A stretch of 64,000 nt of DNA. It comes from a virus (taxonomy: Duplodnaviria; Heunggongvirae; Uroviricota; Caudoviricetes). This document shows, in pieces, positions 1,035 through 60,438 of this stretch (position 1 is the stretch's first letter; the number at the start of each line of letters is the position of its first letter). The translations under genes and the position numbers were made by a program. Location of the stretch: IMG/VR virus record IMGVR_UViG_3300032323_004296. One strand, 5' to 3'. The notes under the pieces are model-generated. The model was not told where the DNA came from. It did no database searches and saw only the letters and a program-made list of their open reading frames with translations.

Positions 1035-1047
1035 ATATATAAATACG

Positions 1048-5440: not shown

Positions 5441-5460
5441 AAAGTTATAAAATATAAAAA

Positions 5461-5483
5461 CCCTCTAAGTTGAGGGTTTTTTT
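5461..5483 (+). terminator. rho-independent terminator
   Basis: Hairpin CCCTCtaagttGAGGG followed by TTTTTTT. Confidence 0.7.
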
Positions 5484-5484
5484 A

Positions 5485-7014: not shown

Positions 7015-7049
7015 TAAAGAGAGACTACGGTCTCTCTTTTTATTTTTTT
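7015..7049. terminator. bidirectional rho-independent terminator
   Basis: Hairpin AGAGAGACtacgGTCTCTCT followed by a T-run. It lies between the convergent genes 6695..6973(+) and 7040..7885(-). Confidence 0.65.
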
Positions 7050-35491: not shown

Positions 35492-35986
35492 ATGAGTTAT
35501 CAAAAAAAAAATAATATCCGAGAGGTTAATATGAACTTGGAGATAAGATTCTTAAATGAACAAACGGTTGTTCCTCTCATGACCGTTTTGTCAACGCCCA
35601 ATAATGTGGCAGTTAATGCTCAAGACAACACTGACATCATTTTTTTGACTATGAGAGATAAAACAGGAAAAATTGTTCCAAACTCAAAATATTCATATAA
35701 AGTGAGGGGTAAAAAAGGTTTTATTTCCTTCGACCTTACTTTAAGAAAAGTTGAAAGACTCAATAATGGTGATTTAAGTGCAGAGGCTTATCCTAAGAAC
35801 GATATTATGAAAGGACTTTTAAGTTTAATCCCGAGCAAATACAAAACCGCAGATGGTTATGTAAAAATACTCGTTCCTAACGCAAAAATTACTGAGGCGA
35901 TAAAAAAACTACAAGCAAATAAAGGTGTCAATGCAACCGTAGATGCGGGTAATGGAATTGATGTCGTATTCAAATTGATTCAATAA
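35492..35986 (+). CDS. hypothetical protein
   Basis: 164-aa ORF. Confidence 0.5.
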   Translation: MSYQKKNNIREVNMNLEIRFLNEQTVVPLMTVLSTPNNVAVNAQDNTDIIFLTMRDKTGKIVPNSKYSYKVRGKKGFISFDLTLRKVERLNNGDLSAEAYPKNDIMKGLLSLIPSKYKTADGYVKILVPNAKITEAIKKLQANKGVNATVDAGNGIDVVFKLIQ

Positions 35987-40142: not shown

Positions 40143-40928
40143 ATGAAAAGAAAATTATTCGTTTTAGTATTAGGATTAGCCGCTATCGTAAGTAGTTGTA
40201 CCGTTGTAAGACAAGGAGAAGTTGGTGTAAAAAGAACCATTGGTAAAATTCAGCAGAAACCGTTAATGGAAGGTGCCAGACTTTTCAACCCTTTTGTTAC
40301 CACAATTATTAAACTTCCAACAAGAACCGTAAACATGGAGGTAAGATTACCTCTACCTTCGAAAGAGGGTTTGACAGTTCAATCTGAAATTTCAATATTG
40401 TATAGATTAGATGGACAATCTGCACCAAGTGTAATTGAAAAACTTGGAACGAATTATGAGCAGGTGGTAATTCTACCTGTATTCCGTTCAGCAGCTGCTG
40501 ACATATCTTCACAATATTTCGCAAAAGATATGCATACAGGACAAAGAGCAGTAATCGAAAAGGATATAAAAAAGTTGATGGAATCACAACTGAAAGATAG
40601 AGGATTTACTATCGAATCAGTATTATTGAAGAGTATCGTTCTACCAACAGGTTTGGCCAAAGCAATTGAAGAAAAATTAGAGGCCGAACAAGATGCACAA
40701 AGAATGGAATTTACACTAAATAAAGAACGCCAAGAGGCTACAAGAAGAATTATAGAAGCTGAAGGTATTCGAAATTCACAAAAAATAATTTCTGAGGGAT
40801 TGACACCGATGTTGTTACAGTTTAAAAGTATAGAGGCTTTCTTGAAACTTTCAACATCACCAAATTCAAAGGTTATTATAACAAGTGGTAGTCAACCATT
40901 TGTAATTAATCCAGATAATCAAAAATAA
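40143..40928 (+). CDS. SPFH/band-7 (prohibitin/HflKC-like) lipoprotein
   Basis: Lipobox signal MKRKLFVLVLGLAAIVSSC. The SPFH core VGVKRTIGKIQQKPLMEGARLFNPF... is followed by a coiled-coil region. Confidence 0.8.
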   Translation: MKRKLFVLVLGLAAIVSSCTVVRQGEVGVKRTIGKIQQKPLMEGARLFNPFVTTIIKLPTRTVNMEVRLPLPSKEGLTVQSEISILYRLDGQSAPSVIEKLGTNYEQVVILPVFRSAAADISSQYFAKDMHTGQRAVIEKDIKKLMESQLKDRGFTIESVLLKSIVLPTGLAKAIEEKLEAEQDAQRMEFTLNKERQEATRRIIEAEGIRNSQKIISEGLTPMLLQFKSIEAFLKLSTSPNSKVIITSGSQPFVINPDNQK

Positions 40929-42014: not shown

Positions 42015-42263
42015 ATGTTCAATAATTTAACTGTAGGTAAAGTTTACGAAATAAGTGAAATTTCTTCAGGAACTCCCTGTTTAAATTGTAATTCTTGTAT
42101 AAGAATGAGACTGATGGAAATGGGATTAACTGAAGGTGAGAAAATTCGTGTCGAAGGTAAATCACACGGGTTGTACAGATTGAGTATTTTATCTAAAAAA
42201 GAGAATTTATTTACAACTTTAGCTCTGAGAGAAGAAGAAATGGAAAGAATTTGTGTTTTGTAA
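42015..42263 (+). CDS. FeoA-like domain protein
   Basis: GKVYEISEI...RLMEMGLTEGEKIRVEGKSHGLYRL matches the FeoA/SH3-like pattern (RL.ELGL.PG..I.V). Confidence 0.55.
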   Translation: MFNNLTVGKVYEISEISSGTPCLNCNSCIRMRLMEMGLTEGEKIRVEGKSHGLYRLSILSKKENLFTTLALREEEMERICVL

Positions 42264-42293
42264 AAAAAATTCATACCTTTACAAAAAAAAGAT

Positions 42294-42725
42294 ATGACTA
42301 AAGTAAAAATCTCAACAGAACAAGGGGATATGATTGCAGAATTGTATGATGATGCGACTCCCAAAACAGTAAAAAACTTTGTAGACCTGATTCAAAAAGG
42401 GTTTTATAATGGACTAAACTTCCATAGAGTAATTCCGAACTTTGTTATTCAAGGGGGTTGTCCAAATGGAATTGGTAATGGTGGTCCTGGTTATACAATC
42501 GAATGTGAGGTAAACTCTCCTCAACAATATCACGACAGAGGTGTATTATCCATGGCTCACGCAGGCAGAAATACAGGTGGTTCTCAGTTTTTTATCTGTC
42601 ACGGTAGGACAAATACACAACATCTTGATGGAAACCATACTTGTTTCGGTAAAGTTGTTGAAGGGCTTGATGTTATCGACAAAATTTCGCAGGGTAACAA
42701 AATTAATTCTATCGCAATCATTTAA
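42294..42725 (+). CDS. cyclophilin-type peptidyl-prolyl cis-trans isomerase
   Basis: KTVKNFVDL...FHRVIPNFVIQGGCPNGIGNGGPGYTIECE...GVLSMAHAGRNTGGSQFFICH...HLDGNHTCFGKVVEGLDVIDKI are canonical cyclophilin motifs. Confidence 0.9.
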   Translation: MTKVKISTEQGDMIAELYDDATPKTVKNFVDLIQKGFYNGLNFHRVIPNFVIQGGCPNGIGNGGPGYTIECEVNSPQQYHDRGVLSMAHAGRNTGGSQFFICHGRTNTQHLDGNHTCFGKVVEGLDVIDKISQGNKINSIAII

Positions 42726-43798: not shown

Positions 43799-44098
43799 AT
43801 GAACTACGAAAAAATGAAATTATCTGAGTTGAAAGTCTTGGCAGACCTTCATGAAATTCCTACAAACCTTACTAAAGACCAAATTATTAAAAACTTAAAA
43901 CTCGTGGAACAAGATAAGTACATCAAACCAACCACTTGTGAAAAATATGATAAGGATTCTTATTTGGTTGGAGTTGATTTGAAAAACCAACAAAAATTGG
44001 TGTCCTGTGGTAAATTTATTGAAAATGGTGAAATGAAAAAGTCTATGATGTATAGTTCAGACAGAGTATACTTCATTTCTTCATTCAGAATGATGTAA
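43799..44098 (+). CDS. hypothetical protein with SAP/Rho-N-like motif
   Basis: MKLSELKVLADLHEIPTNLTKDQIIKNL resembles the SAP helix-extension-helix motif. TATCTTTG at 43787-43794. Confidence 0.4.
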   Translation: MNYEKMKLSELKVLADLHEIPTNLTKDQIIKNLKLVEQDKYIKPTTCEKYDKDSYLVGVDLKNQQKLVSCGKFIENGEMKKSMMYSSDRVYFISSFRMM

Positions 44099-44762
44099 AC
44101 AAAGAACTAAAGTTATTTCCTACTTTTTTATTAAACTGTTCTAAGGTCACTTTTTCATCTTCTAATCCATTAGGTTTATCTTTTGTATTTTTAAAGATAT
44201 AATATTCGTATTTGTTCTGTGATTTGATGTAAATAACTTTCCAGCAAAGTTCAGGAACTGATACTTGACCGATTTTTTTCATTTCTCCTACGTTTCCGCA
44301 CCATACTCTTACAGAATCAAATTTTTTGGACAATTCTCTTGTCTCCATTTCCAATTTTTTCCAATCTCCAGCATTTAATGAATGATATTGTGGGGACATA
44401 TTAGTAAAATAGAAACTTTCGTTCAAAACATCTTTGCCTGAACATTGATTATCCGCAGCAGGACTCATATGTCCTCTATCAAAACCACTTTTGGTGTAAG
44501 AATCTTGTAAATTAGTTTGTTCCTTCAATGAAGGGTCAGGTAAAAATTTATCTGACCTTGGGATAGGGTTTGTACAAGTAACTTTTTGTTTTGTAACCCA
44601 CCACTCAACCAAAACAGGATATTTTTTACTTTTAGAAAATACTGTAGTATAATTTTTATGAATTAATCTCACAGTATCTTGAGAAAAAACGATTTTTCCG
44701 ATGAAACATAACAAAAAAAACAGAATAAACTTTTTCATGTATATAAATAGAGAAATAAACAA
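44085..44762 (-). CDS. secreted DNA/RNA non-specific endonuclease (Serratia nuclease family)
   Basis: Signal peptide and active-site motif FDRGHMSPAADN (DRGH). Confidence 0.8.
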   Translation of the reverse strand: MFISLFIYMKKFILFFLLCFIGKIVFSQDTVRLIHKNYTTVFSKSKKYPVLVEWWVTKQKVTCTNPIPRSDKFLPDPSLKEQTNLQDSYTKSGFDRGHMSPAADNQCSGKDVLNESFYFTNMSPQYHSLNAGDWKKLEMETRELSKKFDSVRVWCGNVGEMKKIGQVSVPELCWKVIYIKSQNKYEYYIFKNTKDKPNGLEDEKVTLEQFNKKVGNNFSSLFTSF

Positions 44763-44788: not shown

Positions 44789-45286
44789 ATGGAAAGAAGA
44801 TTTATTTTAACAGAAGAAGAAAAGAAAAATATTAGAAAACAATATTTTTTCGAACAATCTACAGAAAAAACTGAAAAAAGGTTTTGTCACAAGGGTAATA
44901 CTAAGTCTTTAGAAGACATCATGGGTCCTGAAGATGCTGAAGATTATATTGAAGGTGTCAGATTGAGAAATTCAGGTGTTCGTGGATTGACAGATACTCT
45001 CGAATTACTCAAAACAATTCATCTACATCCGAATATTTCGGATGGTGGAATGGATTTAGCTAACAAACTTGTCAGCAATCTTCAAACTTACAAACCTTAC
45101 AACTATTTTGACGAAACTAAGAAAGAATGTAATAGAGCAATGGATAAAATTATTGAACTCTATAAAGAAAACGAACACGGTGAAGAATTAGTTAAAGATA
45201 TTGAAAAAGTATATCAAATAAAAGATGTTTCAGACAGAGCTAAAGAATATATCAAACACGGACTAGCTATCATAAAGGGTGAATAA
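44789..45286 (+). CDS. hypothetical protein
   Basis: 165 aa. Terminator follows at 45278-45310. Confidence 0.5.
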   Translation: MERRFILTEEEKKNIRKQYFFEQSTEKTEKRFCHKGNTKSLEDIMGPEDAEDYIEGVRLRNSGVRGLTDTLELLKTIHLHPNISDGGMDLANKLVSNLQTYKPYNYFDETKKECNRAMDKIIELYKENEHGEELVKDIEKVYQIKDVSDRAKEYIKHGLAIIKGE

Positions 45287-45321
45287 TTGAATTCACCCTT
45301 TTTTATTTTTATTATTGTTCC

Positions 45322-45702
45322 GTGAGCACACAATCCCATATAGATAAAGTAAATTTAAAGCCAAATACCCTCCCATACCCACACCATGTAGGTGCACCTA
45401 AAATAGAACCAGTTGATGTAACATTTTTCAAACAGAATGGTACTCGAAAAGTTAATAGGGTTCTACAGAGAAGGTATGACGAGTTGTTGCAAGAGGCAGA
45501 AACACTCCAAAATTCGTATTTAACTAATCAGGAGGTCTATGACTCACATTACAAATTCGAACCCGTTATCGGGGAGATATATCACTTATACGAGGATTTA
45601 GATGGTATAAAGACACTCTCGTTAATTTCACCCAGAGAATGGGGAAAAAAACATTTGTATTCTGTTGTTTTAAATTCTGATTTAACATGGACAAAAGTTT
45701 GA
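45322..45702 (+). CDS. hypothetical protein
   Basis: 126 aa. Confidence 0.5.
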   Translation: MSTQSHIDKVNLKPNTLPYPHHVGAPKIEPVDVTFFKQNGTRKVNRVLQRRYDELLQEAETLQNSYLTNQEVYDSHYKFEPVIGEIYHLYEDLDGIKTLSLISPREWGKKHLYSVVLNSDLTWTKV

Positions 45703-45929
45703 TGAAAATAGTTGTCAAAGTTTTAGAAATCAATTATGAAAATTTAATTATAGAGTCTTGTGAAAAGGTAAAAACCTTTGCCTATGATGAGAAATCAGAA
45801 AATTGGTTACCTGACGATTTTACTCTTTTTATCAAAGTAAAAAATAAAACTCACGACATATGGAATTCTACCGATGTTGAACGTTGTTTATTTGAACATT
45901 TAGGTGTAACTTCCGTAATAACTGTGTGA
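45687..45929 (+). CDS. hypothetical protein
   Basis: 80 aa. Confidence 0.4.
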   Translation: MDKSLMKIVVKVLEINYENLIIESCEKVKTFAYDEKSENWLPDDFTLFIKVKNKTHDIWNSTDVERCLFEHLGVTSVITV

Positions 45930-45978
45930 CAATTTAATAAAGACCATCATATTTATTAGGTATATTAAATTTAATTAA

Positions 45979-46278
45979 ATGGCAGAATCACCGATTTGGA
46001 CGGTTTTTGTTACCGCAATAACAGTTTTAGGTTCCGCAAGTGCGTGGAGATATTGGGAAAGAAGGGCAATGAAAAAAGAAAAAGATGAGGATTTCATGAA
46101 AAGCGACTGTAGAGATAGAATTTCTAAATTAGAAGCACTATTATCTGAAAGTAGTAGAGAAAAAGATGAAATGAGAGAACTGATTTTATCTTTGACTGAG
46201 AAAGTTGCTGCACTTTCTGTCAAGGTTGAATATTTACAGAAGGAGAACCATGAACTTCAGAATAGAATAGTAAATTAA
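45979..46278 (+). CDS. TM + coiled-coil protein (spanin-like architecture)
   Basis: N-terminal TM IWTVFVTAITVLGSASAW followed by a heptad-rich helix to the C-terminus. Confidence 0.45.
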   Translation: MAESPIWTVFVTAITVLGSASAWRYWERRAMKKEKDEDFMKSDCRDRISKLEALLSESSREKDEMRELILSLTEKVAALSVKVEYLQKENHELQNRIVN

Positions 46279-46283
46279 AAGTT

Positions 46284-47402
46284 ATGAGAAGGATTATAAG
46301 ATTAAATGAAAATGATTTAGAATCAATTATACAAAAAGTTATTTTAGAGCAAGGAAGTATGTTTGGAACTGCGGGGACAAACCTACCTGGATATAGAAGA
46401 GACGACCCAAGAAACACTCAACCAAAAGTTGTTACTCCAAGGGTTGAGGATATTAATCCTAAGAAATTGAAAATGGGTGATGGAGGTAGAAAAAATCCAA
46501 AACAAGAAGAGGATGTAAAAATTTTACAAAGAAAATTAATGAAGTTAGGTCATCTTGTAATTAAAGAACCTACAGGATATTTTGGTTCATTAACTCAAAA
46601 GGCTTTGGACAATTATTACAATTCAGGAAAAACAAGTGGAACTGAAAAAAAGAAAACAACAACCACAACTACGACTAAACCAACAGAAAATGTTAAATAT
46701 TCAAAACAAGTTCAGGACCAATTGAATTATATGAAAAATTCAGGAATATTGAAAAATGAAAAATTTACAATACTTGATGACAAAAATTCAATAGTTTATG
46801 CTTTCTTACCTGAATACAAATTCTACAAATTATATTATGTTATCACAGGGAAAAACAGAGGGGATGCTCTCAAAACTAAAAGTATGACAGATTGGATTTG
46901 GGAAAATTGGCGTCAAGTTGGTTCATATATTTGGAAACAAGTAAAAGGTGTTGGAAAATGGAGTGACATCACCAGTTTACCTGATAGAGTTGCTGATTAC
47001 ATTGATGGTTGTTATTTTAATTCTGGTGATTGGGTAATTAAAAACACACCCTCAGGAGTATTTAAAAGAGCGGGTACTATTTCAAACTATATGAATGATT
47101 TATTATTAACTACGTTTATAAGTGAAGATTATGGGGATAGGTTTATATCTTGGGACACTTGTGAAGGAAAAACCATACCTTTCGGATTTCACGGAACAGG
47201 AAGTGCAGATAGATTGGAGGTTCTAAACAATGCCAATCCTGAGAAAGTTTCTTGCCAAAGGCGTAAAATGTCTTTCGGATGTATAAATTTCAACCAAAAG
47301 GATGTTAATAATATCAATAACTTTATCAGTGCAGGTCAATTGACTATTTGGTTACCTGATAAAACTAATGATATTGTAGAAATTCCACAAAACTGTTTGT
47401 AA
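46284..47402 (+). CDS. leader family A + peptidoglycan-binding domain + L,D-transpeptidase (YkuD)-like catalytic domain
   Basis: Leader MRRIIRLNENDLESIIQKVILEQ. The PG_binding_1-like segment is DVKILQRKLMKLGHLVIKEPTGYFGSLTQKAL. The YkuD signature HGTGS...SFGCINF has the His and Ser-x-Gly-Cys spacing of L,D-transpeptidase. Confidence 0.65.
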   Translation: MRRIIRLNENDLESIIQKVILEQGSMFGTAGTNLPGYRRDDPRNTQPKVVTPRVEDINPKKLKMGDGGRKNPKQEEDVKILQRKLMKLGHLVIKEPTGYFGSLTQKALDNYYNSGKTSGTEKKKTTTTTTTKPTENVKYSKQVQDQLNYMKNSGILKNEKFTILDDKNSIVYAFLPEYKFYKLYYVITGKNRGDALKTKSMTDWIWENWRQVGSYIWKQVKGVGKWSDITSLPDRVADYIDGCYFNSGDWVIKNTPSGVFKRAGTISNYMNDLLLTTFISEDYGDRFISWDTCEGKTIPFGFHGTGSADRLEVLNNANPEKVSCQRRKMSFGCINFNQKDVNNINNFISAGQLTIWLPDKTNDIVEIPQNCL

Positions 47403-47407
47403 TCAAA

Positions 47408-47845
47408 TTAGTTGTTATAATTCTTTTTATAACCTCTAGTGTCGATGTGTATCATTCTTCTTGTGAAGAAACCTTTATTTGTGTAAGTACCTAAAGCACC
47501 CCTCAAATGAGGAAATTCATTTTCAACATAATCATTAGCTGATTTGAAAATTTGAATGTCTTTTTTATCGAACTTATTATTACCGTCGATATCAATTACC
47601 CAAATATCTATTGCATCACCATTCAAATGATGAGAATTTTTTGCTGCGTTGGATAAAATACTGTTATACCATCTATGTCTTTTTCTACTTATTACAAACC
47701 AATTTGTATTGTAACCTCTCTTAGAAATCTCATTTTCTATCATTTCTAATTTAGTAGTCACTTTCTGATTTGATGGATAGAAGAAAACCAACTTTACAAC
47801 AATCAAAATTGATACAACCAATAAAACTTTTTTGAACTTACTCAT
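47408..47845 (-). CDS. peptidase M15-family (D-Ala-D-Ala carboxypeptidase/endolysin-like) with N-terminal signal-anchor
   Basis: SHHLNGDAIDI...HIDTR matches the SxHxxGxAxD...H zinc-binding pattern of M15. N-terminal TM. Confidence 0.55.
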   Translation of the reverse strand: MSKFKKVLLVVSILIVVKLVFFYPSNQKVTTKLEMIENEISKRGYNTNWFVISRKRHRWYNSILSNAAKNSHHLNGDAIDIWVIDIDGNNKFDKKDIQIFKSANDYVENEFPHLRGALGTYTNKGFFTRRMIHIDTRGYKKNYNN

Positions 47846-47890
47846 ATCTTTTTTTTTTCAAAGGTAAAGAAACTTTACAAATAAAAAAAA

Positions 47891-48175
47891 TTAACTTTCC
47901 CAACTTATCATCACTTTTATGTGTTGTTCGGGATAGATTGGTTCAATAGTTTCTCTAATTAATAAATCGCACATTTCATTTTCCATAACTTCTTCAGAAA
48001 TTACTTCACCAAGTTCTATTTTGACTTCAACTAATATTAAATTGTTAGATAACGAATAGGAAAGGTTTTTTACCTTAATTTTTGTTCCAGTACCATAAAA
48101 GGAGTCTATAGTATCTTGGCAACTTTCAGCAAGATACCTATTCATAATTTTGATTATACTTCTTTTACTAGCCAC
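47891..48175 (-). CDS. hypothetical protein
   Basis: 94 aa. Confidence 0.45.
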   Translation of the reverse strand: MASKRSIIKIMNRYLAESCQDTIDSFYGTGTKIKVKNLSYSLSNNLILVEVKIELGEVISEEVMENEMCDLLIRETIEPIYPEQHIKVMISWES

Positions 48176-48346
48176 TAATAAAAATATAATCGACTATTAA
48201 ATTAAAGGGAACTTCATCTACCTTGTCCTCTATAATTCTTCTCAGAAGAGTCATGTTTGTTGTAAGATTTTTGGTGTTTTCCTTTCTTTCTTTTTCCAAA
48301 TGTTAGCTTCCTCGAGTCTCCACTTTTTGAACCTTTTGATTTTGTC

Positions 48347-48679
48347 ATGTATTATGATTTGACAATAAATATTGATATATTTATTTATATGTTATTAACA
48401 GAACAAGAAAAAGAAGAAATAAAGAAAAAATACGAGGACAACATATCAAAAGAGGTCTTGGCTCATTTGAAAAGATATTATCCTATTTATGAATTCAATA
48501 TGAAATTTATGGATTCTCCTGTCAAACAGATTTTAGTGGATGATAAACTATATATGCTTTCTCAAAATAAAAAGTATCTAGTTAATAAGATATCTTCCAT
48601 TATAGAAGAAACATTTACGTCAGTAGAAAAACCCTTTCTCAGAAGAACTGTAAAATTTTATTTAGATATGTTGAAATAA
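48347..48679 (+). CDS. hypothetical protein
   Basis: 110 aa. Confidence 0.45.
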   Translation: MYYDLTINIDIFIYMLLTEQEKEEIKKKYEDNISKEVLAHLKRYYPIYEFNMKFMDSPVKQILVDDKLYMLSQNKKYLVNKISSIIEETFTSVEKPFLRRTVKFYLDMLK

Positions 48680-48705
48680 AATTTGATTGGTTCGAAAATA
48701 CTTCA

Positions 48706-48713
48706 TACCTTTG
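48706..48713 (+). promoter_or_regulatory. -7 promoter element TACCTTTG upstream of tRNA-Phe
   Basis: TAnnTTTG lies 60 nt upstream of the tRNA. Confidence 0.4.
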
Positions 48714-48773
48714 TAAAGGATTTGAAACCCATAGGTGATGAAAGATACTCAGGTAATTCAAATTCAGTTCTTT

Positions 48774-48849
48774 GGTAGCGGTAGCTCAGTTCCGGTAGAG
48801 CAACATCCTGAACAGATGTGTGCCAGAGGTTCGATTCCTCTCCCTACCA
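48774..48849 (+). tRNA. tRNA-Phe (anticodon GAA)
   Basis: D-arm TAGCTCAGTTCCGGTAGAGC. Anticodon arm ACATC-CTGAACA-GATGT. T-arm AGAGG-TTCGATT-CCTCT. Acceptor GGTAGCG/CCCTACC with one mismatch and one extra nt before U8, so needs tRNAscan confirmation. Confidence 0.6.
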
Positions 48850-49207
48850 CGAAATCTTCGGAATTTTTTCTGAACTTTCATCAAAAGATTTGGTTGTTTG
48901 TAAAAACTTACTTATCTTTGAAATAACAGGACAGCGGAATGTTTATTATAGGTGGTTCCCCATACTCACCTTACCCATATTCTTCTCCGCTTTATAAATT
49001 AGAAACTAATGGTTAAATAAACACGGGCAGTTTGTGAGAGTGGTCATCTCGGTCTTACTGTAAAAGACAAAACTCACCAAGTCTCTTTTTTCACTCTGGT
49101 TCGTTTTCACAGACTTAAAACAAGAAAACAGAAGTACGTCCTACTTCACGGGTTTCAGAGATTGACCCACCACAAAACAACTCAAAACTTGTCCTGACGG
49201 GGACTTC

Positions 49208-49233
49208 GGGGAGACGACGGTCTCCCCTTTTTG
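49208..49233 (+). terminator. rho-independent terminator
   Basis: Hairpin GGGGAGACgacgGTCTCCCC followed by TTTTT. It ends a 300-bp ORF-free stretch downstream of the tRNA. Confidence 0.65.
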
Positions 49234-49264
49234 TTATATTTATTGGTAAGTAAATTACCAATAT

Positions 49265-49525
49265 ATGAAAAAATTTTTTAAATCACTTTTCAGTGATGAC
49301 AACAACATCAATGAAAAAGCAGTAATCGGTTTCGGAGCATTTGTTATGATGGTTGTATTCGCAATTGCGGATATTATCACAGGAAGTATGGGGAAAGAAT
49401 TGATAATTCAAGAATTCATCTTCAATTCCTTCTTAATCATGACTTTGGGTTGTTTCGGCATTGCCTCTGTCGACAAGTACATGAACAAAAAGTTTGGAGA
49501 CAAAGAAGAAGAAATTTCCGAGTAA
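49265..49525 (+). CDS. small membrane protein (2 TM)
   Basis: 86 aa. Terminator at 49532-49557. Confidence 0.5.
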   Translation: MKKFFKSLFSDDNNINEKAVIGFGAFVMMVVFAIADIITGSMGKELIIQEFIFNSFLIMTLGCFGIASVDKYMNKKFGDKEEEISE

Positions 49526-49580
49526 AATTAGTCCCCTCCTTCGAGAGGGGATTTTAATTTATTTTTGTATTTATAGAAAT

Positions 49581-50552
49581 ATGAATGTTATTGTATCACA
49601 GGACCAAATAGAAAGGGTAATCCCAAACGAAGACATCGAATTTGTCAGGAAATATAGGGAGATGTATGGTAATTACCCAACATTTAGGGGACTACAACAG
49701 GGTAAACATACTGTTGGTGAAGTTCATCCTAATCACTCAAAAAAAGATTTGAAATGGAAAACTTATGTTGATGGTTTAGGTAAACTTTTCTCACTGATTG
49801 TTATGATAGTTTCTAAAGGAAAAGGTGAAGAATTGGCAGATATCAAAAAGACCGGAAAGAGACTTCAGAGCTTAGATAAGAAACATCTTTTTGTTAGTAA
49901 GTTAGAGGCATTTACGTACAACATATTTCTTTTAGAAAATGTTGCACAAGAAATGGAATTGGAACCGAAAAAATTCTTACGTACCTGTAATAAGATACCT
50001 GATTTTCTTTGGGAAAATAAAAAGTTGGTTATTGAGGTTGCTGGCATGGAATCTGAAAAATATATCAACAAGTTAGAAGACGCTAAAAAATGTTTTTCAG
50101 ATTTGGGTTATAATGTAATAACTTTGGATGCAAGAAAATTCGAAAGAGCTAATAAATTTATAGAATATTACCTCTATGTGTGTAATATTTTTGGTTTTAA
50201 ACCTAAAAAAGAAGTTTTGGGTTCTCCATACAAATATTTGGGATTTACGCAATTGCAACGTCAAGATTTACAAAAATATATCGATGACAATATCAACAAG
50301 TATAATGAACTTGACAGGAAAGGTCAGTATACATTAAACAAATATGTTCAGGAGCTCCATGGTATGAATGTCAGACAATATAAAAATAAAATAGGACTTC
50401 CAAGATATTCAAACTCAGTTTCAAAACAAAAAATAATTGACTACAAAAAAGAAAATCCTACAATGTCCAATCAGGAAATTGCGGATTACTTTGGAGTTAG
50501 TAAAAATACAATACAGGGAGCAACTTCAGGTATGGTTGGTAGAAACAATTAA
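49581..50552 (+). CDS. hypothetical protein with C-terminal HTH-like segment
   Basis: Start at the ATG that follows TTTGTATTTATAG. C-terminus SNQEIADYFGVSKNTIQ is HTH-like. Confidence 0.55.
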   Translation: MNVIVSQDQIERVIPNEDIEFVRKYREMYGNYPTFRGLQQGKHTVGEVHPNHSKKDLKWKTYVDGLGKLFSLIVMIVSKGKGEELADIKKTGKRLQSLDKKHLFVSKLEAFTYNIFLLENVAQEMELEPKKFLRTCNKIPDFLWENKKLVIEVAGMESEKYINKLEDAKKCFSDLGYNVITLDARKFERANKFIEYYLYVCNIFGFKPKKEVLGSPYKYLGFTQLQRQDLQKYIDDNINKYNELDRKGQYTLNKYVQELHGMNVRQYKNKIGLPRYSNSVSKQKIIDYKKENPTMSNQEIADYFGVSKNTIQGATSGMVGRNN

Positions 50553-54201: not shown

Positions 54202-54618
54202 CTATCTTGAGAAGTAATTTTTTAACTTTTCAACTCTTTTTTCATCGAATTTGGTCTTATGTCTGTCTTCATAGTTTTTTTGTAACAATTCGACAGCATC
54301 ATCTTTTCCTTTACTTCTTAGTAAAATATAAGCTCCTAAATCTGCATCTATTTCATCATCATCGTTCCTATCTTTATCGTGTCCTAAAATTATATGAGCC
54401 ACTTCATGAGCCTCGATAAATTTTAAAAAAGATGGGTCATAGTTCTGAAGTAAAATTTCTCCATTTATGACAATTAGATTTTGATTTGGAACCATAAATC
54501 CATATCCGTATTTATTGAACAAAGGTAGTAATTCTTTATACTTCTTGTCTTCAGAAAAGACAACAGCGATGTTTACACCCTCTAAAAATTCACTTTCGTA
54601 GGTTAGTCTTGTTGACAT
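54202..54618 (-). CDS. ImmA/IrrE-like HExxH metallopeptidase
   Basis: FIEAHEVAHIILGHDKD is similar to the ImmA/IrrE zinc-peptidase motif. Confidence 0.5.
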   Translation of the reverse strand: MSTRLTYESEFLEGVNIAVVFSEDKKYKELLPLFNKYGYGFMVPNQNLIVINGEILLQNYDPSFLKFIEAHEVAHIILGHDKDRNDDDEIDADLGAYILLRSKGKDDAVELLQKNYEDRHKTKFDEKRVEKLKNYFSR

Positions 54619-54623
54619 TTAAA

Positions 54624-55433
54624 TTATTTAAGTAGGTTATAATATTCTTTAAAGTGTTTTTTTCTGTCTTCTAATCCTATTGTTCCACCATTTACACATT
54701 TAGTAACAGATGTTACTGCGGCATCAGATTCGTCCACACACTTACTTAAACAATTTTTACTGAAAAACCAAGCGGCAGATAATAATGGATATTTCGTAGA
54801 AACCAAATCAGGATTTGAAACGACATCTTCATTAATCGCTTTACCAAAAGCCGTATAGTTGTCTTTACCGGTCAATTGAATAAATCCGCGGCCACGAAAT
54901 TTGAAACCTTCTTTGGTCTCTTCTACACCATTACCCATTCTTCCACCATAAACTCTTGATGCAATCTTTTCGGGTTGTCTTGCATAAGATTCTGAAAGAG
55001 TTCCGGGAAAATACTTAGGAAATATTTTTTTGAGACCGTCAGAAGAGTAATTTAGATTTTCATTCACAACTTTGAATCCTCCTGATTCATGTCCACATTG
55101 TGCTAAGAAGTGAGCTAACTTAAGTGGAGTATCAATTTTGAATTTGGCTGCAGTATCAGGTATCTGTGCAATCACAGAATCAGGAATATGACCCTTCAGT
55201 TTATCAAGTTTAAGACCACCAACTTGAGGGGCGACTTGAGGAGTGACTGACTCATTCATAATCTTACTCCAAGTGTTATCACCTACAATACCGTCAGGTG
55301 TTAACGAATTTTTAGTTTGAAAATTTTTAACGGATTCTTCAGTTTTTTTACCGAAGTCACCATCACCAGATAATCCAAGTTTTAATTGTAATTTTTTTAC
55401 ATCTTCTCCTTTGGACCCTAATTTTAATAGCAT
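54624..55433 (-). CDS. endolysin: N-terminal peptidoglycan-binding domain + glycoside hydrolase family 19 (chitinase/lysozyme-like) domain
   Basis: PG_binding_1 segment is LKLGSKGEDVKKLQLKLGLSGDGDFGKKTEESVKNFQ. GH19-like catalytic region is LAHFLAQCGHESGGFKVVNENLNYS...GRGFIQLTGKDNY. Confidence 0.8.
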   Translation of the reverse strand: MLLKLGSKGEDVKKLQLKLGLSGDGDFGKKTEESVKNFQTKNSLTPDGIVGDNTWSKIMNESVTPQVAPQVGGLKLDKLKGHIPDSVIAQIPDTAAKFKIDTPLKLAHFLAQCGHESGGFKVVNENLNYSSDGLKKIFPKYFPGTLSESYARQPEKIASRVYGGRMGNGVEETKEGFKFRGRGFIQLTGKDNYTAFGKAINEDVVSNPDLVSTKYPLLSAAWFFSKNCLSKCVDESDAAVTSVTKCVNGGTIGLEDRKKHFKEYYNLLK

Positions 55434-55492
55434 AAAAAAAATATTTATAAGGTTTATTACCCTATAAATATTTTTATTTTGATAACTTTACT

Positions 55493-55768
55493 TTAGTGAG
55501 ATAAACTATCTACGGAAACTGATAAAGTATCCACAACATTTACTAAAGTGTCTACAGGTAAAATAACACTGTCCTTCGCAGTTGATACAAAAATACCATC
55601 AACCTGATTAATAATCAAATGGAAATCAACCATATCTTCAGTAATATAACCGTACTTAACACCTAACAATGAAAGTCCGATTACAACTAAAGACACAACA
55701 ATCACCATAGGTCTTTTACCTTTGAGAATAGAAATGAGAGGTAAAAATTTTTCTTGAAGTTTTTTCAT
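55493..55768 (-). CDS. small single-TM protein (holin candidate)
   Basis: 91 aa with TM MVIVVSLVVIGLSLLGV. Sits immediately upstream of the endolysin. Confidence 0.4.
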   Translation of the reverse strand: MKKLQEKFLPLISILKGKRPMVIVVSLVVIGLSLLGVKYGYITEDMVDFHLIINQVDGIFVSTAKDSVILPVDTLVNVVDTLSVSVDSLSH

Positions 55769-55785
55769 AGTTTTTTAATTTAATT

Positions 55786-56901
55786 TTATTTTTTTTCTTT
55801 ACCACCTTCTTGTGTGGCATATTTTATACCCATAATTGTTCCTACTATTGAGAATGCGTTTGTCAATAATACACTAAACATGTTACTCCAAGTCGAGCCA
55901 ATAATCTGTGTATCCTTACCAGTAATGATTGCCATCCAATACAATATAGTTGTTACAACACCTACCCCGACAATAACAGCTAGTGCAACTTTTACGATTA
56001 CCTTAATTAACTCAGATTGACTTTTTTTCATTACCACATCCAAATCATTCAACGCAGCGTTCTTCTCTCTTTCAATTGAGTCTTTGAGTTTTTCCGATTC
56101 CTTTAACTGTAGTTGCAAATCTTTTGATAATAAATCAATTTCCTTTTTATTATTTACTGCTTCGGTAACATCAGTGGCAATTTTAATTACACTTGTAACG
56201 TTTCCTTTACTGTCAAAGACAGGATTATAAGTTGCCTGTAGATAGATAGTAGACCCATCTACTTTTTTTCTTTCGAATATCCCATCTAAAAACTTACCAT
56301 TATTTAAGTTCTTCCAAAACTTAGAATACTCATCAGATTTTGAATACTCATAACTAACAAAAATACTATGATGCTTTCCAACAACTTGATTTTTTTCGTT
56401 TGGTTTAAAACCCATTGTTTCTAAGAAAATTTCATTAGCATCCAAAATAAAACCCTTCATGTCAAAAGTAATAGTGGCGGTACTTTTGTTAATTGCATCT
56501 ATTTGTTTTTTACTATCAACAATTGCAGTAATGTCAGTAGCAACTTTCATTATTTTAGTAATCGTACCAGTTTCATCAAAAATAGGGTTGTAGGTTGCTT
56601 GTAAGTTGATAAGATTACCGTCTCTTTTTCTTCTTTCAAATTCCCCTTTATAGTACTTACCACTTCTTAAGATATCCCAAAACTTTTCGTACTCTAACGA
56701 CCTTGCATAATCTTCACATACAAAAATACTATGGTGTTTACCAACAATTTCCGCGTGCTCATCCTCCCCATATCCCATTGCCTTCAAAAAAATAGCATTA
56801 ACACCTAAAATTTTTCCGGTTAGGTCAAAATAAATAAGAGCGTTACTCCTATTTATCGCCTCCATCCTGCTGAGTAACTCTTCCTTTGATAGGTTCTTCA
56901 C
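55786..56901 (-). CDS. tandem PAS-domain protein with C-terminal coiled-coil and TM anchor
   Basis: Two repeats of about 120 aa matching the PAS_3 pattern (GKHHSIFV..Y.....KFW..L..GK...G.FERKK.DG..I.LQATYNP.FD..G....I.K.ATD.T). C-terminal TM IVKVALAVIVGVGVV... Confidence 0.7.
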   Translation of the reverse strand: MKNLSKEELLSRMEAINRSNALIYFDLTGKILGVNAIFLKAMGYGEDEHAEIVGKHHSIFVCEDYARSLEYEKFWDILRSGKYYKGEFERRKRDGNLINLQATYNPIFDETGTITKIMKVATDITAIVDSKKQIDAINKSTATITFDMKGFILDANEIFLETMGFKPNEKNQVVGKHHSIFVSYEYSKSDEYSKFWKNLNNGKFLDGIFERKKVDGSTIYLQATYNPVFDSKGNVTSVIKIATDVTEAVNNKKEIDLLSKDLQLQLKESEKLKDSIEREKNAALNDLDVVMKKSQSELIKVIVKVALAVIVGVGVVTTILYWMAIITGKDTQIIGSTWSNMFSVLLTNAFSIVGTIMGIKYATQEGGKEKK

Positions 56902-57965: not shown

Positions 57966-58238
57966 ATGCAAGAGCTCCCTTTTGAACAAGAAATTGAAGA
58001 TAACAAGTTAATCAGGACATTTCTACCATCCGTTGATTCTGAAGAATTAAAATGGCATCAAGATGATAAAGATAGAATTGTGACAGTAATAGAAGACGGA
58101 GGTTGGATGTTTCAAAAAGAGGATATGTTGCCAAACAAATTGTCAAAAAATCAAAAACTACAGATACCAAAATTTGTTTGGCATAGAGTTATAAAAGGAA
58201 ACGATAAACTTGTGGTAGAAATTGAAGAATTAGAATAA
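57966..58238 (+). CDS. hypothetical protein
   Basis: 90 aa. Confidence 0.45.
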   Translation: MQELPFEQEIEDNKLIRTFLPSVDSEELKWHQDDKDRIVTVIEDGGWMFQKEDMLPNKLSKNQKLQIPKFVWHRVIKGNDKLVVEIEELE

Positions 58239-58997
58239 ATCTTCAATTTTGAATTTATCAATGAACGTAGGAAAAGCTTCCTTGTATGACTTTTGAGTTT
58301 CGTCAGACATTTTGTTTGTGTATTGCCAATTCCAATAGAAATCATCATTAGTTTTGAAACCGTAGAACGTGTGAACTTTTTTTTGTGTGTCAACAACATC
58401 CATACCTTTCCAGTTTTGACCAACACAGATAAAACCAGATTGTATATTTTCAACTAAATTCGACTCACCTAATGTTGAGTGTCTATTTTGAATCCATGTA
58501 AGCCTTTCGATAAGTTTTTGATAAAACATGTTAGCTTGTCCCCATCTTACAGAACTAAAAAATATAACGGCATTAGAATCAAAAAGTTCTTTTGTAATTT
58601 TCCAAAGCTCATCATCTTTTTCATTAAAAGATGCCCAACATCTGTGATACCCTGATGGATTTTTTGTATCACTTTTAAGTAACGATTTTTTTACACCACA
58701 ACTATTACCCTCAGCTCTCGATACATTTCCTTCACAGGGGTAAATCTTGAGTTCAGGCACATCAATCAAAACTGCTTTGTCACCCAAGTATTCTTGAATA
58801 ACCATTGCAAGGATAGTCGATTTTGGAATATCAATTTTATTAGGGTCCCAATTATACCTATTGGAGCAAGCCAATAATAATACTTTATCCAACTTATCTA
58901 ATTCAAGAATAGTGTTCTTGAATTTTTTATAGTTACCTGTTGAATTGTTTTTTTCTGTGACGTTATACTTGTCGAAAAGTTCGTCTAATCTTTGCAT
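58230..58997 (-). CDS. conserved hypothetical (flavodoxin-like fold?) protein, paralog of 22149..22862
   Basis: Shares the identity blocks listed for 22149..22862. Confidence 0.6.
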   Translation of the reverse strand: MQRLDELFDKYNVTEKNNSTGNYKKFKNTILELDKLDKVLLLACSNRYNWDPNKIDIPKSTILAMVIQEYLGDKAVLIDVPELKIYPCEGNVSRAEGNSCGVKKSLLKSDTKNPSGYHRCWASFNEKDDELWKITKELFDSNAVIFFSSVRWGQANMFYQKLIERLTWIQNRHSTLGESNLVENIQSGFICVGQNWKGMDVVDTQKKVHTFYGFKTNDDFYWNWQYTNKMSDETQKSYKEAFPTFIDKFKIEDLF

Positions 58998-60261: not shown

Positions 60262-60350
60262 ATAAAAGAGAAGCAGGATTTACATTTTAGACAGAGGTCA
60301 TTATGTGTAAAAAAACCTACTACCGAATGACTTGCGGTTACTTCTCAGAG

Positions 60351-60438
60351 CGGAGAGAGTAGGATTCGAACCCACGGACCCCTTGCGAGGTCTTCAGATT
60401 TCAAGTCTGACGCGATAGACCAACTCTGCCATCTCTCC
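60351..60438 (-). tRNA. tRNA-Ser (anticodon TGA), type II with long variable arm
   Basis: Perfect 7-bp acceptor GGAGAGA/TCTCTCC, discriminator G. Anticodon arm CAGAC-TTGAAAT-CTGAA region with anticodon TGA. Variable arm ACCTCGCAAGGGGTCC. T-arm GTGGG-TTCGAAT-CCTAC. Confidence 0.8.

Follow-up and report, generated by a model that had tools for sequence, protein, structure and literature searches.

The 372-residue protein described here is a modular peptidoglycan (PG)-acting enzyme of a huge uncultivated phage, and it is very probable that its YkuD-fold catalytic part belongs to a two-gene cassette that is swapped as a unit. An earlier note on the window, that is, the whole stretch of 64,000 nucleotides that was analysed, had read the gene as combining a family A leader, a PG-binding segment and a YkuD-type domain, and profile searches, alignment and a structural model bear out all three parts. 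An ORF check found both this gene and the one upstream of it at the positions given in Table 1. The enzyme gene begins 5 nt past the upstream stop codon and has no promoter motif of its own; no terminator was found between the two genes, and a search for intrinsic terminators around both likewise gave none.

Table 1. Features of the locus, in window positions.
Feature	Residues	Position	Strand	Basis or remark
TATTTAT promoter-like motif		45950..45956	+	22 nt upstream of the TM-coiled-coil gene
TM-coiled-coil membrane protein, constant first gene of the socket	99 aa	45979..46278	+	Hydropathy, charges, heptads
Leader / PG_binding_1 / YkuD-like enzyme gene	372 aa	46284..47402	+	
Family A leader	1-23	46284..46352	+	Ends I-L-E-Q; five-copy family, profile
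PG_binding_1 domain	75-108	46506..46607	+	Pfam match, pLDDT >90
Swappable cassette: catalytic-domain coding part and entire convergent partner gene		46617..47845		blastn boundaries
Thr-rich disordered linker	116-133	46629..46682	+	pLDDT <50
Divergent YkuD-fold domain	136-372	46689..47399	+	Conservation, Pfam in homologs, AlphaFold, Foldseek, hhalign
His303 codon	303	47190-47192	+	
Cys333 codon	333	47280-47282	+	
Exported LAS-type zinc peptidase, M15 / DUF882 (MepK) family	145 aa	47408..47845	-	Pfam, hhalign, AlphaFold, Foldseek
TACCTTTG, TAnnTTTG element		47859..47866	-	13 nt upstream of the M15 partner ATG

The PG-binding segment scored above the gathering cut-off of PF01471 (26.3 bits against 23, E 8.3e-6), the match is present in all 41 aligned homologs of the enzyme, and the three-helix region was modelled by AlphaFold with pLDDT >90. 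The linker that follows it holds seven consecutive Thr residues. No Sec, Tat or lipoprotein signal was found on the enzyme; the N-terminal string MRRIIRL was considered as a Tat/Sec signal and rejected on direct reading, since no hydrophobic core follows it and the homologs have KK.

The window enzyme itself has no PF03734 match at E<=0.1 in Pfam. Among its homologs, 23 of 41 match that family at E<=0.01, four of them (P0013, P0050, P0069 and P0099) with 26.7-27.5 bits against a gathering cut-off of 23.4, and in several the match runs from profile position 7 to 141 out of 146. All 41 sequences, some with identity as low as 38%, keep His303-Gly-Thr and Gly332-Cys333 unchanged, and likewise the TPSG and HGT motifs. 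hhalign paired the His and Cys of the enzyme with HGT and GC in B. subtilis YkuD (77% probability, E 1.9e-5), in an alignment that carries a 14-residue insertion and uses a hand-entered YkuD reference sequence. Comparison of a predicted structure with YkuD structures, which the earlier note had proposed, returned that fold: the AlphaFold model (pLDDT 75) found L,D-transpeptidases in 49 of the 50 PDB matches listed by Foldseek (1y7m/4a1i, LdtMt2, Ldtfm; probability ~1, E 5e-4 to 2e-2), with a target-normalised TM of 0.54-0.58 for single-domain chains. Together with the invariant His and Cys this upholds the signature first noticed in the sequence. The best viral structure matches were "large polyvalent protein" and "gp88 domain" proteins of uncultured phages (E ~5e-8). 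A PDB sequence search with the enzyme family profile returned PG-binding domains only, and when the enzyme family was aligned by hhalign with the L015 partner YkuD_2 and with the canonical L021 YkuD, the outcome was only noise.

The domain departs from the canonical form in several ways. A large helical insertion of about 60-90 residues, modelled with moderate confidence only, lies at approximately residues 195-285. There are 29 residues between His303 and Cys333, and the Cys lies in the motif S-F-G-C-I-N, so that the enzyme does not fit the strict H-X14-17-[S/T]-H-G-C-h pattern and is therefore a divergent relative rather than a canonical YkuD member. Given the atypical spacing and the SFGC, its predicted chemistry may be that of a transpeptidase, a carboxypeptidase or an endopeptidase. 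The enzyme also has Asn after GC(I/V), where L,D-transpeptidases conserve an Arg in their catalytic sites (review, PMC12729407).

The leader of the enzyme, MRRIIRLNENDLESIIQKVILEQ, is one of five family A copies in the window, on genes starting at 30875, 31335, 33672, 34872 and 46284. M1, R6, L7, E9, L12, V19, E22 and Q23 are invariant in the five, position 20 is I, L or V, and Q23 is kept in at least 90% of sequences. A 30-column profile of the five N-termini matched 6,877 cluster representatives at E<=0.001, the match starting at residue 1 in nearly all of the best 150 of these; chance cannot explain this spread, and the assignment of the enzyme to family A stands. AlphaFold placed a low-confidence helix at residues 9-25 and then disorder at residues 22-52. 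Among 16 leaders synonymous codons vary freely, with conserved Leu, Thr and Ser each using 3-5 codons. Judged by its codons, the leader is selected at the protein level, and a nucleotide-level element such as a translation enhancer or recombination box is ruled out by the 3-5 codons per conserved residue.

At least four leader families are present, and leaders of any family were found on 55 of the 223 ORFs in five sampled loci (~25%). The motif [LIVM]xE[QE] occurred at residues 10-32 in 29 of the 55 leader ORFs versus 11 of 168 other ORFs, a comparison that is partly circular since the motif belongs to the leader itself. The leader is absent from a clear GH19 endolysin and from the exported M15 protein. 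A short N-terminal peptide is thus common to unrelated proteins of one phage, and it ends at a hydrophobic-x-Glu motif, which makes it compatible, at the level of sequence only, with a capsid-targeting sequence or prohead-protease propeptide. The leader motif also occurs inside some proteins, two to five times in each, and resembles a strand-plus-helix element. About 30 proteins with a leader were scanned against Pfam and PHROG and no informative function came out, five leader strings had no match in the searchable literature, and the N-terminal 116 residues as sole query returned no homolog candidates, probably owing to a word-index limit.

The product of the upstream gene had been described as having a spanin-like TM plus coiled-coil architecture. 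The architecture is real, since a hydrophobic segment covers residues 4-22 and a clean a/d heptad pattern residues 45-99; the likeness to spanins did not survive. The TM segment is flanked by a net charge of -1 on its N side and by six K/R in 15 residues on its C side, in 3/3 homologs examined, and by the positive-inside heuristic, on which the topology rests, this predicts an N-out/C-in protein with a cytoplasmic coiled coil, the reverse of an i-spanin. Furthermore, the + strand between 45900 and 46700 holds no lipobox ORF of at least 20 aa, neither embedded nor adjacent, the next gene being the enzyme, and neither Pfam nor PHROG gave a spanin family match. We therefore rejected the i-spanin identity; that the protein bridges the envelope at lysis is very improbable indeed, despite its single TM segment and long coiled coil. 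Its sole family matches are holin-type and weak, namely PHROG 2658 "hol-like chemotaxis" (E 1.4e-6) and the holin family PF23987 (E 0.006 and 4e-4; 17.0 and 20.7 bits, below the cut-off of 27), and no curated holin family reached its cut-off. The protein is small, spans the membrane, has a charged tail predicted to face the cytoplasm and is encoded beside a wall hydrolase gene, as a holin would be; it is holin-like rather than spanin-like. It is 100% identical in L018, and its gene is kept before swapped cassettes in L005, L006, L015, L016 and L018; on further contigs an ORF of 99 aa precedes the TseH gene. Its junction with the enzyme gene is a 5-nt gap or a 4-nt overlap in all relatives. No match to the protein was found by tblastn in 50,697 GenBank phage records.

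The locus is a socket. What stays constant in it is the gene of the TM-coiled-coil protein, the stretch that encodes leader and PG-binding domain, and one promoter at either side, and its variable unit consists of the catalytic domain plus the convergent exported-protein gene, which are replaced together. The blastn homology stops sharply at window positions 46603-46616 and resumes equally sharply at 47842-47890, with flanks that are 84-92% identical to L017, L018 and L019 and 73% identical to L015 and L016. The mapped socket takes three replacement domains, a TseH-like one, a Tlde1-like one and one of unknown fold, and their partners are respectively C92 (L017), YkuD_2 (L015) and an unrelated 114-aa signal-peptide protein (L018); with the YkuD-like domain of the window this makes four catalytic domain types. 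A constant N-terminal module is therefore joined to a variable C-terminal domain that is co-replaced with the downstream gene, as in polymorphic toxins. Every partner bears a TM anchor or a signal peptide, from which export is predicted, and the enzyme bears none; by their sequences the M15, YkuD_2 and C92 partners look like active enzymes. A fifth domain type (P0110/P0118) has the leader and PG-binding module in common with the others and stands in a different context, with no exported partner and no TM-coiled-coil gene upstream.

Neither the swapping nor the M15 partner had been mentioned in the earlier note. The partner has an N-terminal TM anchor at residues 7-25 with a predicted N-in/C-out topology. 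PF05951 matches four of its five homologs (best E 1.1e-5), and hhalign aligned it to E. coli MepK at 96.4% probability (E 1.4e-9) with the zinc-site motifs conserved; a PDB sequence search with the M15 profile gave nothing significant. In its AlphaFold model (pLDDT 91.8) it shows the LAS fold, an H-x6-D...H zinc site and both the SxHxxGxAxD and the HxD motif, and S71, H73, D80, H133 and D135 are invariant. The Foldseek neighbours were phage L-Ala-D-Glu peptidases, ChiX, hedgehog, LdcB and VanY, and thus include both L-Ala-D-Glu peptidases and carboxypeptidases; the protein also matches PHROG 894 "endolysin". By homology the partner is a MepK (DUF882) protein, and the YkuD-like/M15 pair therefore mirrors E. 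coli ldtD-mepK. The two genes stay adjacent in relatives down to 43% identity, and at least 15 further enzyme/M15 homolog pairs appear to co-occur, judging by the equal size of the longest contigs; the M15 gene is absent in some relatives (L003, L012).

The two sides of the socket differ in their promoters: the partners are preceded by TAnnTTTG, and the enzyme operon, like the endolysin gene, by TATTTAT. TATTTAT lies 11-25 nt upstream of the homologous TM gene in L005, L006, L015 and L018. It occurs 70 times in the window versus 38.3 +/- 6.3 in shuffles and precedes 32 of 108 ORFs; as a leader-specific promoter it was rejected, there being no significant link to leader genes (Fisher p 0.35). 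The element TACCTTTG fits the Bacteroidota sigma-A -7 consensus, TAnnTTTG, and in L004, L005, L006, L017 and L018 the partner gene likewise has a TAnnTTTG at 4-16 nt upstream. The endolysin in question, GH19 plus PG_binding_1, is encoded in the window 7 kb away (PHROG 181, E 3e-65) next to a TM protein.

The enzyme's relatives come from IMG/VR contigs 109-321 kb long, and of 185,579 species genomes only one has the family, in a lake Bacteroidetes MAG on a contig of 2 kb; with the GH19 endolysin in the window, these findings speak for a phage origin. The host is probably a freshwater Bacteroidota species. No close cultured relative turned up: against the 50,697 phage records, blastn of 5 kb gave only a tRNA-sized match, and tblastn of the enzyme and of a family-C protein gave none. 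No capsid, portal or prohead protease gene was seen in the 64-kb window or in the loci of relatives examined; a lake Bacteroidetes phage clade of similar size, which we do not equate with the present one, has a T4-type prohead protease (PMC9723584).

In our view the leader most likely serves to incorporate the protein into the virion, much as the capsid-targeting sequence of T4 does, and would be removed by a cut between the E and Q of [LIV]-x-E-Q. The particle would then carry the mature PG-binding enzyme and at infection release it into the periplasm, where it would trim or re-link peptide stems locally. The partner, expressed from a host-type promoter and exported by Sec, would reverse or limit this activity in the already infected cell, like the immunity protein of a T6SS effector or like Spackle acting on gp5. 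The probable targets of both proteins are bonds at the L-centre of meso-DAP, with the mDAP-D-Ala bond of tetrapeptide stems and 3-3 cross-links as the predicted ones. Virion delivery of the enzyme, which the earlier note had raised on condition that the leaders target proteins into the capsid, is plausible, and the chance that the full scenario of delivery and partner is right seems to us slightly less than even. Consistent with delivery are the lack of an export signal on the enzyme, the protein-level selection of the leader and its [LIV]xE-Q end, the leaderless endolysin and M15 protein, and the presence in sister phages of T6SS-effector-type domains behind the same module. The internal proteins of T4 are similarly diverse and have only a capsid-targeting sequence of 10-20 aa in common (PMC3012670, PMC5694885), Spackle is a periplasmic inhibitor of the virion lysozyme (PMC7677548), and Tlde1/Tae5 and TseH are injected periplasmic toxins. 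The viral structure matches given above and the promoter difference between the two sides of the socket also count in favour of the scenario.

Several observations weigh on the other side. Since leaders were found on about a quarter of the sampled ORFs, the packaged proteome would be unusually large, which counts against delivery, as do the internal copies of the motif. The holin-like upstream gene is tightly coupled to the enzyme gene, as holin and endolysin genes classically are; modular Gram-negative endolysins usually have their PG-binding domain N-terminal to the catalytic one, and virion lysins are usually without binding domains. The M15, YkuD_2 and C92 partners look enzymatic and not inhibitor-like, which speaks against an antagonist role, and the fifth domain type without an exported partner and the relatives without M15 do not favour the scenario as a whole. 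More tentatively still, several leader families of about 20 residues may serve a large clade of uncultivated huge phages, probably of Bacteroidota, as a general tag for loading an effector arsenal into the particle, with this locus as a polymorphic effector socket in which PG-targeting domains otherwise seen in T6SS toxins (YkuD/Tlde1-like, TseH-like and others) would change places behind a fixed leader and PG-binding module, each with its cognate exported antagonist. Family A alone is found on about 6,900 protein clusters, and such an arsenal would be large and fast-changing.

The main rival to virion delivery is a holin-dependent role in lysis, which we regard as possible, though on balance unlikely. 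The TM protein would be the holin, the enzyme a cytoplasmic endolysin or accessory peptidase released late, the M15 protein a second, Sec-exported lysis peptidase, and the leader a general feature with no part in localisation. The holin-type matches of the TM protein and its tight junction with the enzyme gene in all relatives agree with this, as do the TATTTAT common to the operon and the GH19 endolysin gene, the endolysin-like order and swapping of domains, the recorded if rare use of YkuD and Tlde1 domains in phage lytic proteins (PhaLP), and the M15 protein's PHROG 894 match and its fold, which is like that of phage L-Ala-D-Glu endolysins. However, the holin matches lie under the family cut-offs, and the phage has a complete alternative 7 kb away in the GH19 endolysin with its adjacent TM protein. 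Each partner has, behind a host-type promoter, either a strong anchor or an ordinary signal peptide of the cleavable kind, and none is SAR-like; the partners would thus reach the wall early and cannot be lethal lysis enzymes. YkuD-type enzymes, moreover, are not known to cut the dominant 4-3 cross-links. Finally, a role in lysis would explain neither the leader nor why the partner is swapped along with the domain.

It is less probable that the enzyme is a true L,D-transpeptidase which, by forming 3-3 cross-links or attaching protein to mDAP, would make up a writer/eraser pair with a MepK-like cutter and re-tune wall strength, or shut out other phages, in the course of a huge phage's long infection cycle. 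The conserved His and Cys and the ldtD-mepK-like pairing would fit such wall remodelling, in the Tlde1-like and YkuD_2 cassette, too, both enzymes act on one and the same stem peptide, and bacterial L,D-transpeptidases do serve stress repair and toxin release (PMC12729407). Yet the TseH/C92 and unknown-domain cassettes misfit a scheme of cross-link writing and erasing, Asn stands at the conserved Arg position, and since the enzyme is without a signal it would have no route to the periplasm of a living cell. We think it even less probable that the leader is a recurrent structural or oligomerisation helix, or a tag for docking on the outside of the particle at a tail or decoration site, with the YkuD-like domain a PG-binding pseudo-enzyme or adaptor. 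The internal motif copies with their strand-plus-helix likeness would suit this, and so would the SFGC, the 29-residue spacing and the large insertions with their moderate model confidence, but His303, Cys333, TPSG and HGT are invariant in 41 sequences to 38% identity and the sister cassettes carry clearly enzymatic domains.

That phages encode wall enzymes is well established, and among these the YkuD-type domains form a rare class on record. Going by the searchable literature for the leader strings and by the GenBank phages for the enzyme, three features seem undescribed: a single socket in which catalytic domains of at least four families are exchanged with a matching exported partner between flanks 84-92% identical; a phage equivalent of the ldtD-mepK pair, indicative of chemistry at the meso-DAP L-centre; and a leader peptide superfamily whose members are spread over protein clusters in the thousands. 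Should the leader prove to be a tag for packaging or delivery, the injection of non-DNA cargo by huge phages becomes directly testable, and a short tag for loading foreign proteins would be at hand, as with the capsid-targeting sequence of T4. If the effector-socket reading is true, the locus would be a phage counterpart of bacterial polymorphic toxin/immunity systems, generalising gp5/Spackle. If it is a lysis module instead, it would supply new Gram-negative lysin domains with built-in binding modules.

The enzyme resembles the YkuD L,D-transpeptidases (B. subtilis YkuD, LdtMt2, Ldtfm and the hydrolytic relatives Csd6 and DpaA) in its fold, its His and Cys on HGT...GC and its TPxG and GK, and the LdtD-type enzymes in having a PG-binding domain ahead of the catalytic one. 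Unlike them it lies under Pfam detection, spaces its His and Cys by 29 residues where they have 14-17, reads SFGC-I-N in place of [S/T]HGC-h-R, carries a helical insertion and no signal peptide, and is phage-encoded and practically absent from cellular genomes. Like E. coli ldtD and mepK, a gene for a YkuD-family enzyme adjoins one for a putative L,D-endopeptidase of the DUF882/M15 family; the phage genes differ in being convergent and both highly diverged, with no signal peptide on the enzyme. The constant N-terminal module with a variable C-terminal PG-targeting domain recalls the T6SS effectors Tlde1/Tae5 and TseH and polymorphic toxin loci. An exported-protein gene lies immediately downstream and is co-swapped with the domain, as in effector/immunity loci, and sister cassettes themselves carry Tlde1-like and TseH-like domains. 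Tae5 shows that a YkuD-type fold can act as a toxic L,D-carboxypeptidase. In contrast to the T6SS systems, the carrier here is a phage and most partners (M15, YkuD_2, C92) look enzymatic and have no known immunity fold; protection by the partner is putative.

Among phages, the internal proteins and Alt of T4, which are ejected with the DNA (PMC3012670, PMC5694885), likewise carry a short N-terminal peptide on unrelated, fast-evolving, genome-clustered small proteins, and the gp21-processed capsid-targeting sequence of T4 ends, like our leader, in hydrophobic-x-Glu. Our leaders differ in their at least four families, their thousands of cargo clusters and their internal copies, and their cleavage and packaging are putative. 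T4 also offers a virion-borne wall enzyme, gp5, acted on in the periplasm of the infected cell by Spackle (PMC7677548), a pairing with a small exported phage protein that resembles ours; the virion location is in our case a prediction, the genes are adjacent and co-swapped, and the partner is a MepK-type enzyme. In PhaLP, YkuD is a rare catalytic class of phage lytic proteins with 10 entries. Modular endolysins of Gram-negative jumbo phages, of the KZ144 type, join PG_binding_1 to a catalytic domain. The present enzyme has the same order, with PG_binding_1 N-terminal and the catalytic domain C-terminal, and a small membrane protein is encoded beside it; unlike those endolysins it carries an extra leader and a 50-residue disordered linker before the binding domain, and its phage encodes a separate, leaderless GH19 endolysin.

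It is highly probable that the window encodes an enzyme of YkuD fold that acts on peptidoglycan and belongs to a two-gene socket with swappable content. Homology to the window spans the TM-coiled-coil gene, the leader and the PG-binding domain of the enzyme, ends at 46603-46616 and restarts at 47842-47890, the start codon of the convergent M15 partner gene; outside this cassette, identity is 84-92% for loci L017-L019 and 73% for L015-L016. Since homology breaks and resumes at these edges and the TM-coiled-coil protein is constant across the socket (the L018 copy is 100% identical), the exchange unit is the catalytic domain together with the partner gene. A YkuD-like domain is paired with a TM-anchored, MepK-like M15 partner in the window, L005, L006 and L013, a TseH-like domain (PF25218, E 2e-12) with a signal-peptide Peptidase_C92 (E 1.5e-32) in L017, a Tlde1/YkuD-like domain (PF10908) with a signal-peptide YkuD_2 protein (E 4e-36) in L015 and L016, and a domain of ~300 aa without known family with a 114-aa signal-peptide protein in L018 and L019. 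The fifth domain (P0110, P0118; L021) has no Pfam match and no partner. In L021 a leader-tagged canonical YkuD (250-984; IYIHGT...SNGCIRV, normal spacing) is encoded directly upstream of the fifth-domain gene, which is directly followed by a conserved 94-aa gene without an exported partner between.

Both ORFs of the operon are as the earlier note gave them, 5 nt apart and with no terminator-like sites found near them, and the leader, PG_binding_1 and YkuD-type parts that it had read in the enzyme were all borne out. The enzyme itself lies below Pfam detection for the YkuD domain, and PF03734 is matched by 23 of its 41 homologs, several above threshold and over almost the whole profile. Across the 41 homologs, down to 38% identity, His303-Gly-Thr, Gly332-Cys333 and a TPSG motif do not vary, and hhalign aligned His303 and Cys333 with the catalytic His/Cys pair of B. 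subtilis YkuD (reference sequence entered by hand), an insertion of 14 residues separating the two. The structure prediction proposed in the note gave the same answer, the AlphaFold model being of YkuD-type fold in Foldseek, with L,D-transpeptidases making up 49 of the 50 PDB matches listed. The domain is atypical: His-Cys spacing is 29 residues, whereas it is 14-17 in canonical YkuD, the motif is SFGC-I-N rather than [S/T]HGC-h-R, and the model contains, at only moderate confidence, a helical insert some 60-90 residues long. Since YkuD-fold enzymes may be transpeptidases, L,D-carboxypeptidases, endopeptidases or amidases (PMC12729407; Tae5/Tlde1), the fold sets the probable target, bonds at the L-centre of meso-DAP, but not the reaction direction. 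In L008-L012 (contigs of 137-321 kb) the YkuD-like domain follows a family B leader, not family A, and there is no PG-binding domain.

Features of the window and of the 372-aa enzyme
Feature	Position	Strand	Basis or remark
TM-coiled-coil protein, 99 aa	45979-46278	+	
Enzyme, 372 aa	46284-47402	+	
Family A leader	residues 1-23		five copies in window
Helix, low confidence	residues 9-25		AlphaFold model
Disordered stretch	residues 22-52		AlphaFold model
PG_binding_1	residues 75-108		Pfam, above cut-off
Thr-rich linker, disordered	residues 116-133		AlphaFold model
Catalytic domain (predicted), mixed alpha/beta	residues 136-372		AlphaFold model
M15 partner, 145 aa	47408-47845	-	
Probable lysis region	54202-56901	-	
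PAS-domain protein, C-terminal TM segments	55786-56901	-	
91-aa TM protein	55493-55768	-	
GH19 + PG_binding_1 endolysin	54624-55433	-	
138-aa protein	54202-54618	-	HEVAHIILGHD motif
tRNA-Met, tRNA-Phe, tRNA-Ser	2160-2233, 48774-48850, 60350-60438		
Auxiliary, host-like genes	133-690, 997-1470, 11326-14811, 40143-40928, 42015-42725, 44085-44762		
Cys-repeat paralogs	7040-7885, 8561-9475	-	
237-aa paralog	22149-22862	+	
255-aa paralog	58230-58997	-	
Family B leader ORFs	16767-38197, 62235-62864		e.g. 18938, 19281(-), 24231(-), 30542, 33205, 34250, 35998, 37467, 37856
Family C leader proteins	19719-20195, 20197-21159, 24645-25091		
Further leader types	32539-33132, 44789-45286, 48389-48679, 4316-5440, 35492-35986		
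TATTTAT, examples	45950, 55464(-), 30852, 33649, 34850		

The partner gene is convergent to that of the enzyme, with 5 nt from stop to stop, and its product is predicted to have a strong N-in/C-out anchor. Its domain matches DUF882 and, at 96.4% probability in hhalign, E. coli MepK, with the SxHxxGxAxD and HxD motifs kept; the model (pLDDT 91.8) has the fold of a LAS zinc peptidase. In E. coli K-12, ldtD is directly followed by mepK, and the phage pair reproduces this cellular arrangement, already known, in which a YkuD-family enzyme is coupled to an L,D-endopeptidase. The two phage genes stay adjacent in L001, L004, L005 and L006, down to 43% identity, and adjacency is implied for at least 15 further pairs by equal longest-contig sizes in both homolog lists. 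The contigs L003 and L004, otherwise near-identical, differ at ~7369-7812, where only one of them has an M15 gene beside the YkuD-like gene, and in these YkuD-like homologs (P0059, P0093) the leader is broken up by a CxxC...CxxC insert resembling a zinc ribbon.

TAnnTTTG, the Bacteroidota sigma-A -7 consensus, lies 4-16 nt before the partner genes, non-homologous ones included, while TATTTAT precedes the operon of the TM protein and the enzyme as well as the GH19 endolysin gene, which suggests that the host polymerase would transcribe the partner gene, and a phage-modified one the operon. The window is enriched in both motifs. TATTTAT, likely a phage-specific promoter element, has 70 sites there against 38 in shuffles and occurs in the 45 nt before 32 of the 108 ORFs, among which it is not specific to leader genes.

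The upstream product had been described as spanin-like. Its TM segment and coiled coil stand, residues 4-22 being moderately hydrophobic and rich in small residues and residues 45-99 showing a clean heptad pattern. The spanin part does not: since the N-terminal flank is net negative and the C-terminal flank has six Lys/Arg in 15 residues (in all three homologs examined), an N-out/C-in orientation is predicted, the reverse of an i-spanin, and no lipoprotein ORF was found overlapping or after the gene. These two points speak against an i-spanin, and the spanin reading is extremely improbable. Its family matches, all of them weak, are to holin-type families (PHROG 2658, E 1.4e-6; PF23987, below cut-off).

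We tentatively propose that the enzyme is delivered by the virion and that the partner acts as its antagonist, an arrangement with a precedent in T4 gp5 and Spackle. An export signal is missing on the enzyme and present on every partner, the clear endolysin and the partners have no leader, the socket includes domains known elsewhere from injected periplasmic toxins, and the best viral structural neighbours are 'polyvalent'-type large phage proteins. However, leader proteins are very numerous, the partners look like active enzymes, the leader motif is also internal in some proteins, and capsid or protease genes were not found in the window or the fetched loci. It is somewhat less likely that the holin-like TM protein and the enzyme, as lysin, form a lysis module, as would fit the constant holin-like gene tightly coupled to the enzyme gene, the endolysin-like domain order and the promoter motif common to the operon and the endolysin gene; yet the window has a separate endolysin candidate, partner export would be early and unconditional, and the leader and the co-swapping would be left unexplained. 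Cell-wall remodelling inside the infected cell appears unlikely, and other readings more so.

The window has four or more leader families, and across five non-redundant loci about one ORF in four bears a leader. Since synonymous sites are free to vary, the leader is conserved as protein. The family A profile matched 6,877 cluster representatives at E<=0.001, of which 131 reach E<=1e-10; in nearly all of the best 150 of the 6,877 the match is at residue 1. Some of the proteins P0244-P0393 (e.g. P0248, P0250, P0262, P0264, P0305, P0310) also contain the motif internally, in two to five copies that typically begin with ...N-K-K-V-V-R-L-T-E... and sit between Cys-rich or uncharacterised domains; these may be polyproteins or tandem fusions. 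The family B leader (MKYIITEEQY..L.EQ) is found on at least 11 small uncharacterised ORFs, mostly in tandem arrays, and family C (MNLQENIQRIKEMMGI.E) on unrelated proteins without Pfam matches; those of L012 (6992-11810) include, by direct reading, a P-loop-motif protein and another whose HEIQH motif is zinc-protease-like. Further types are ..LTEQEK..I..., MKNTILNEELDKMKFMFGYQKGRVISEQ and ...MNLEIRFLNEQ, and the socket's conserved flank includes the gene at 44789 as well as its homologs in L006 and L015. The leaders of family A, and many of families B and C, terminate in hydrophobic-x-Glu-Gln/Glu; the specificity of the T4 prohead protease is L/I-x-Glu. There is a realistic chance, though not a high one, that the leader is a general protein-delivery tag in huge phages.

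The window (G+C 32.7%) is read as phage DNA because of its leaderless GH19 + PG_binding_1 endolysin (PHROG 181, E 3e-65) and its many short ORFs without detectable relatives. In blastn with 5 kb of the window and tblastn with the enzyme, no similar GenBank phage was found, the sole blastn match being Ralstonia phage RsoM2USA on the tRNA-Phe. Relatives of the enzyme are carried by IMG/VR viral contigs of 109-321 kb, and of 185,579 species genomes just one was found to have the family, in a Lake Loclat Bacteroidetes MAG on a contig of 2 kb. The signal peptides of the window's secreted proteins are, by direct reading, Bacteroidota-style. In size and habitat, the phage is like a lake Bacteroidetes phage clade with genomes up to 331 kb (PMC9723584). 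Since L013, from an independent sequencing run (Logan ERR2848548), is 100% identical at 846-5604 to window 45242-50000, this genotype recurs in another sample. The auxiliary genes encode a cobalamin adenosyltransferase, Nudix, GT2 glycosyltransferase, UDP-galactopyranose mutase, SPFH/Band 7 lipoprotein, cyclophilin, secreted DNA/RNA non-specific endonuclease and FeoA, the last assigned via L005/L015 homologs only. Two paralogs are full of CxxCxGxG-type Cys repeats like the DnaJ zinc-finger region, their sole family match being a weak one to Anti-TRAP, and two diverged paralogs have ...YPCEGNVSR.EGN.CG.K..LL.....NPSGYHRCWAS... in common.

Lysin domain shuffling is well known; the literature searched yielded no description of a fixed socket with co-swapped exported partners, of an ldtD-mepK-like phage pair or of a leader superfamily at such scale. 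YkuD- or Tlde1-domain phage lysins are on record but rare (PhaLP). The nearest precedent for the leader is the T4 capsid-targeting sequence, a propeptide of 10-20 residues on diverse internal proteins that is removed by the prohead protease (PMC3012670, PMC5694885). Domain and partner are exchanged together in the socket, as is characteristic of polymorphic toxin/immunity loci, and T6SS effector families account for two of its catalytic domains.
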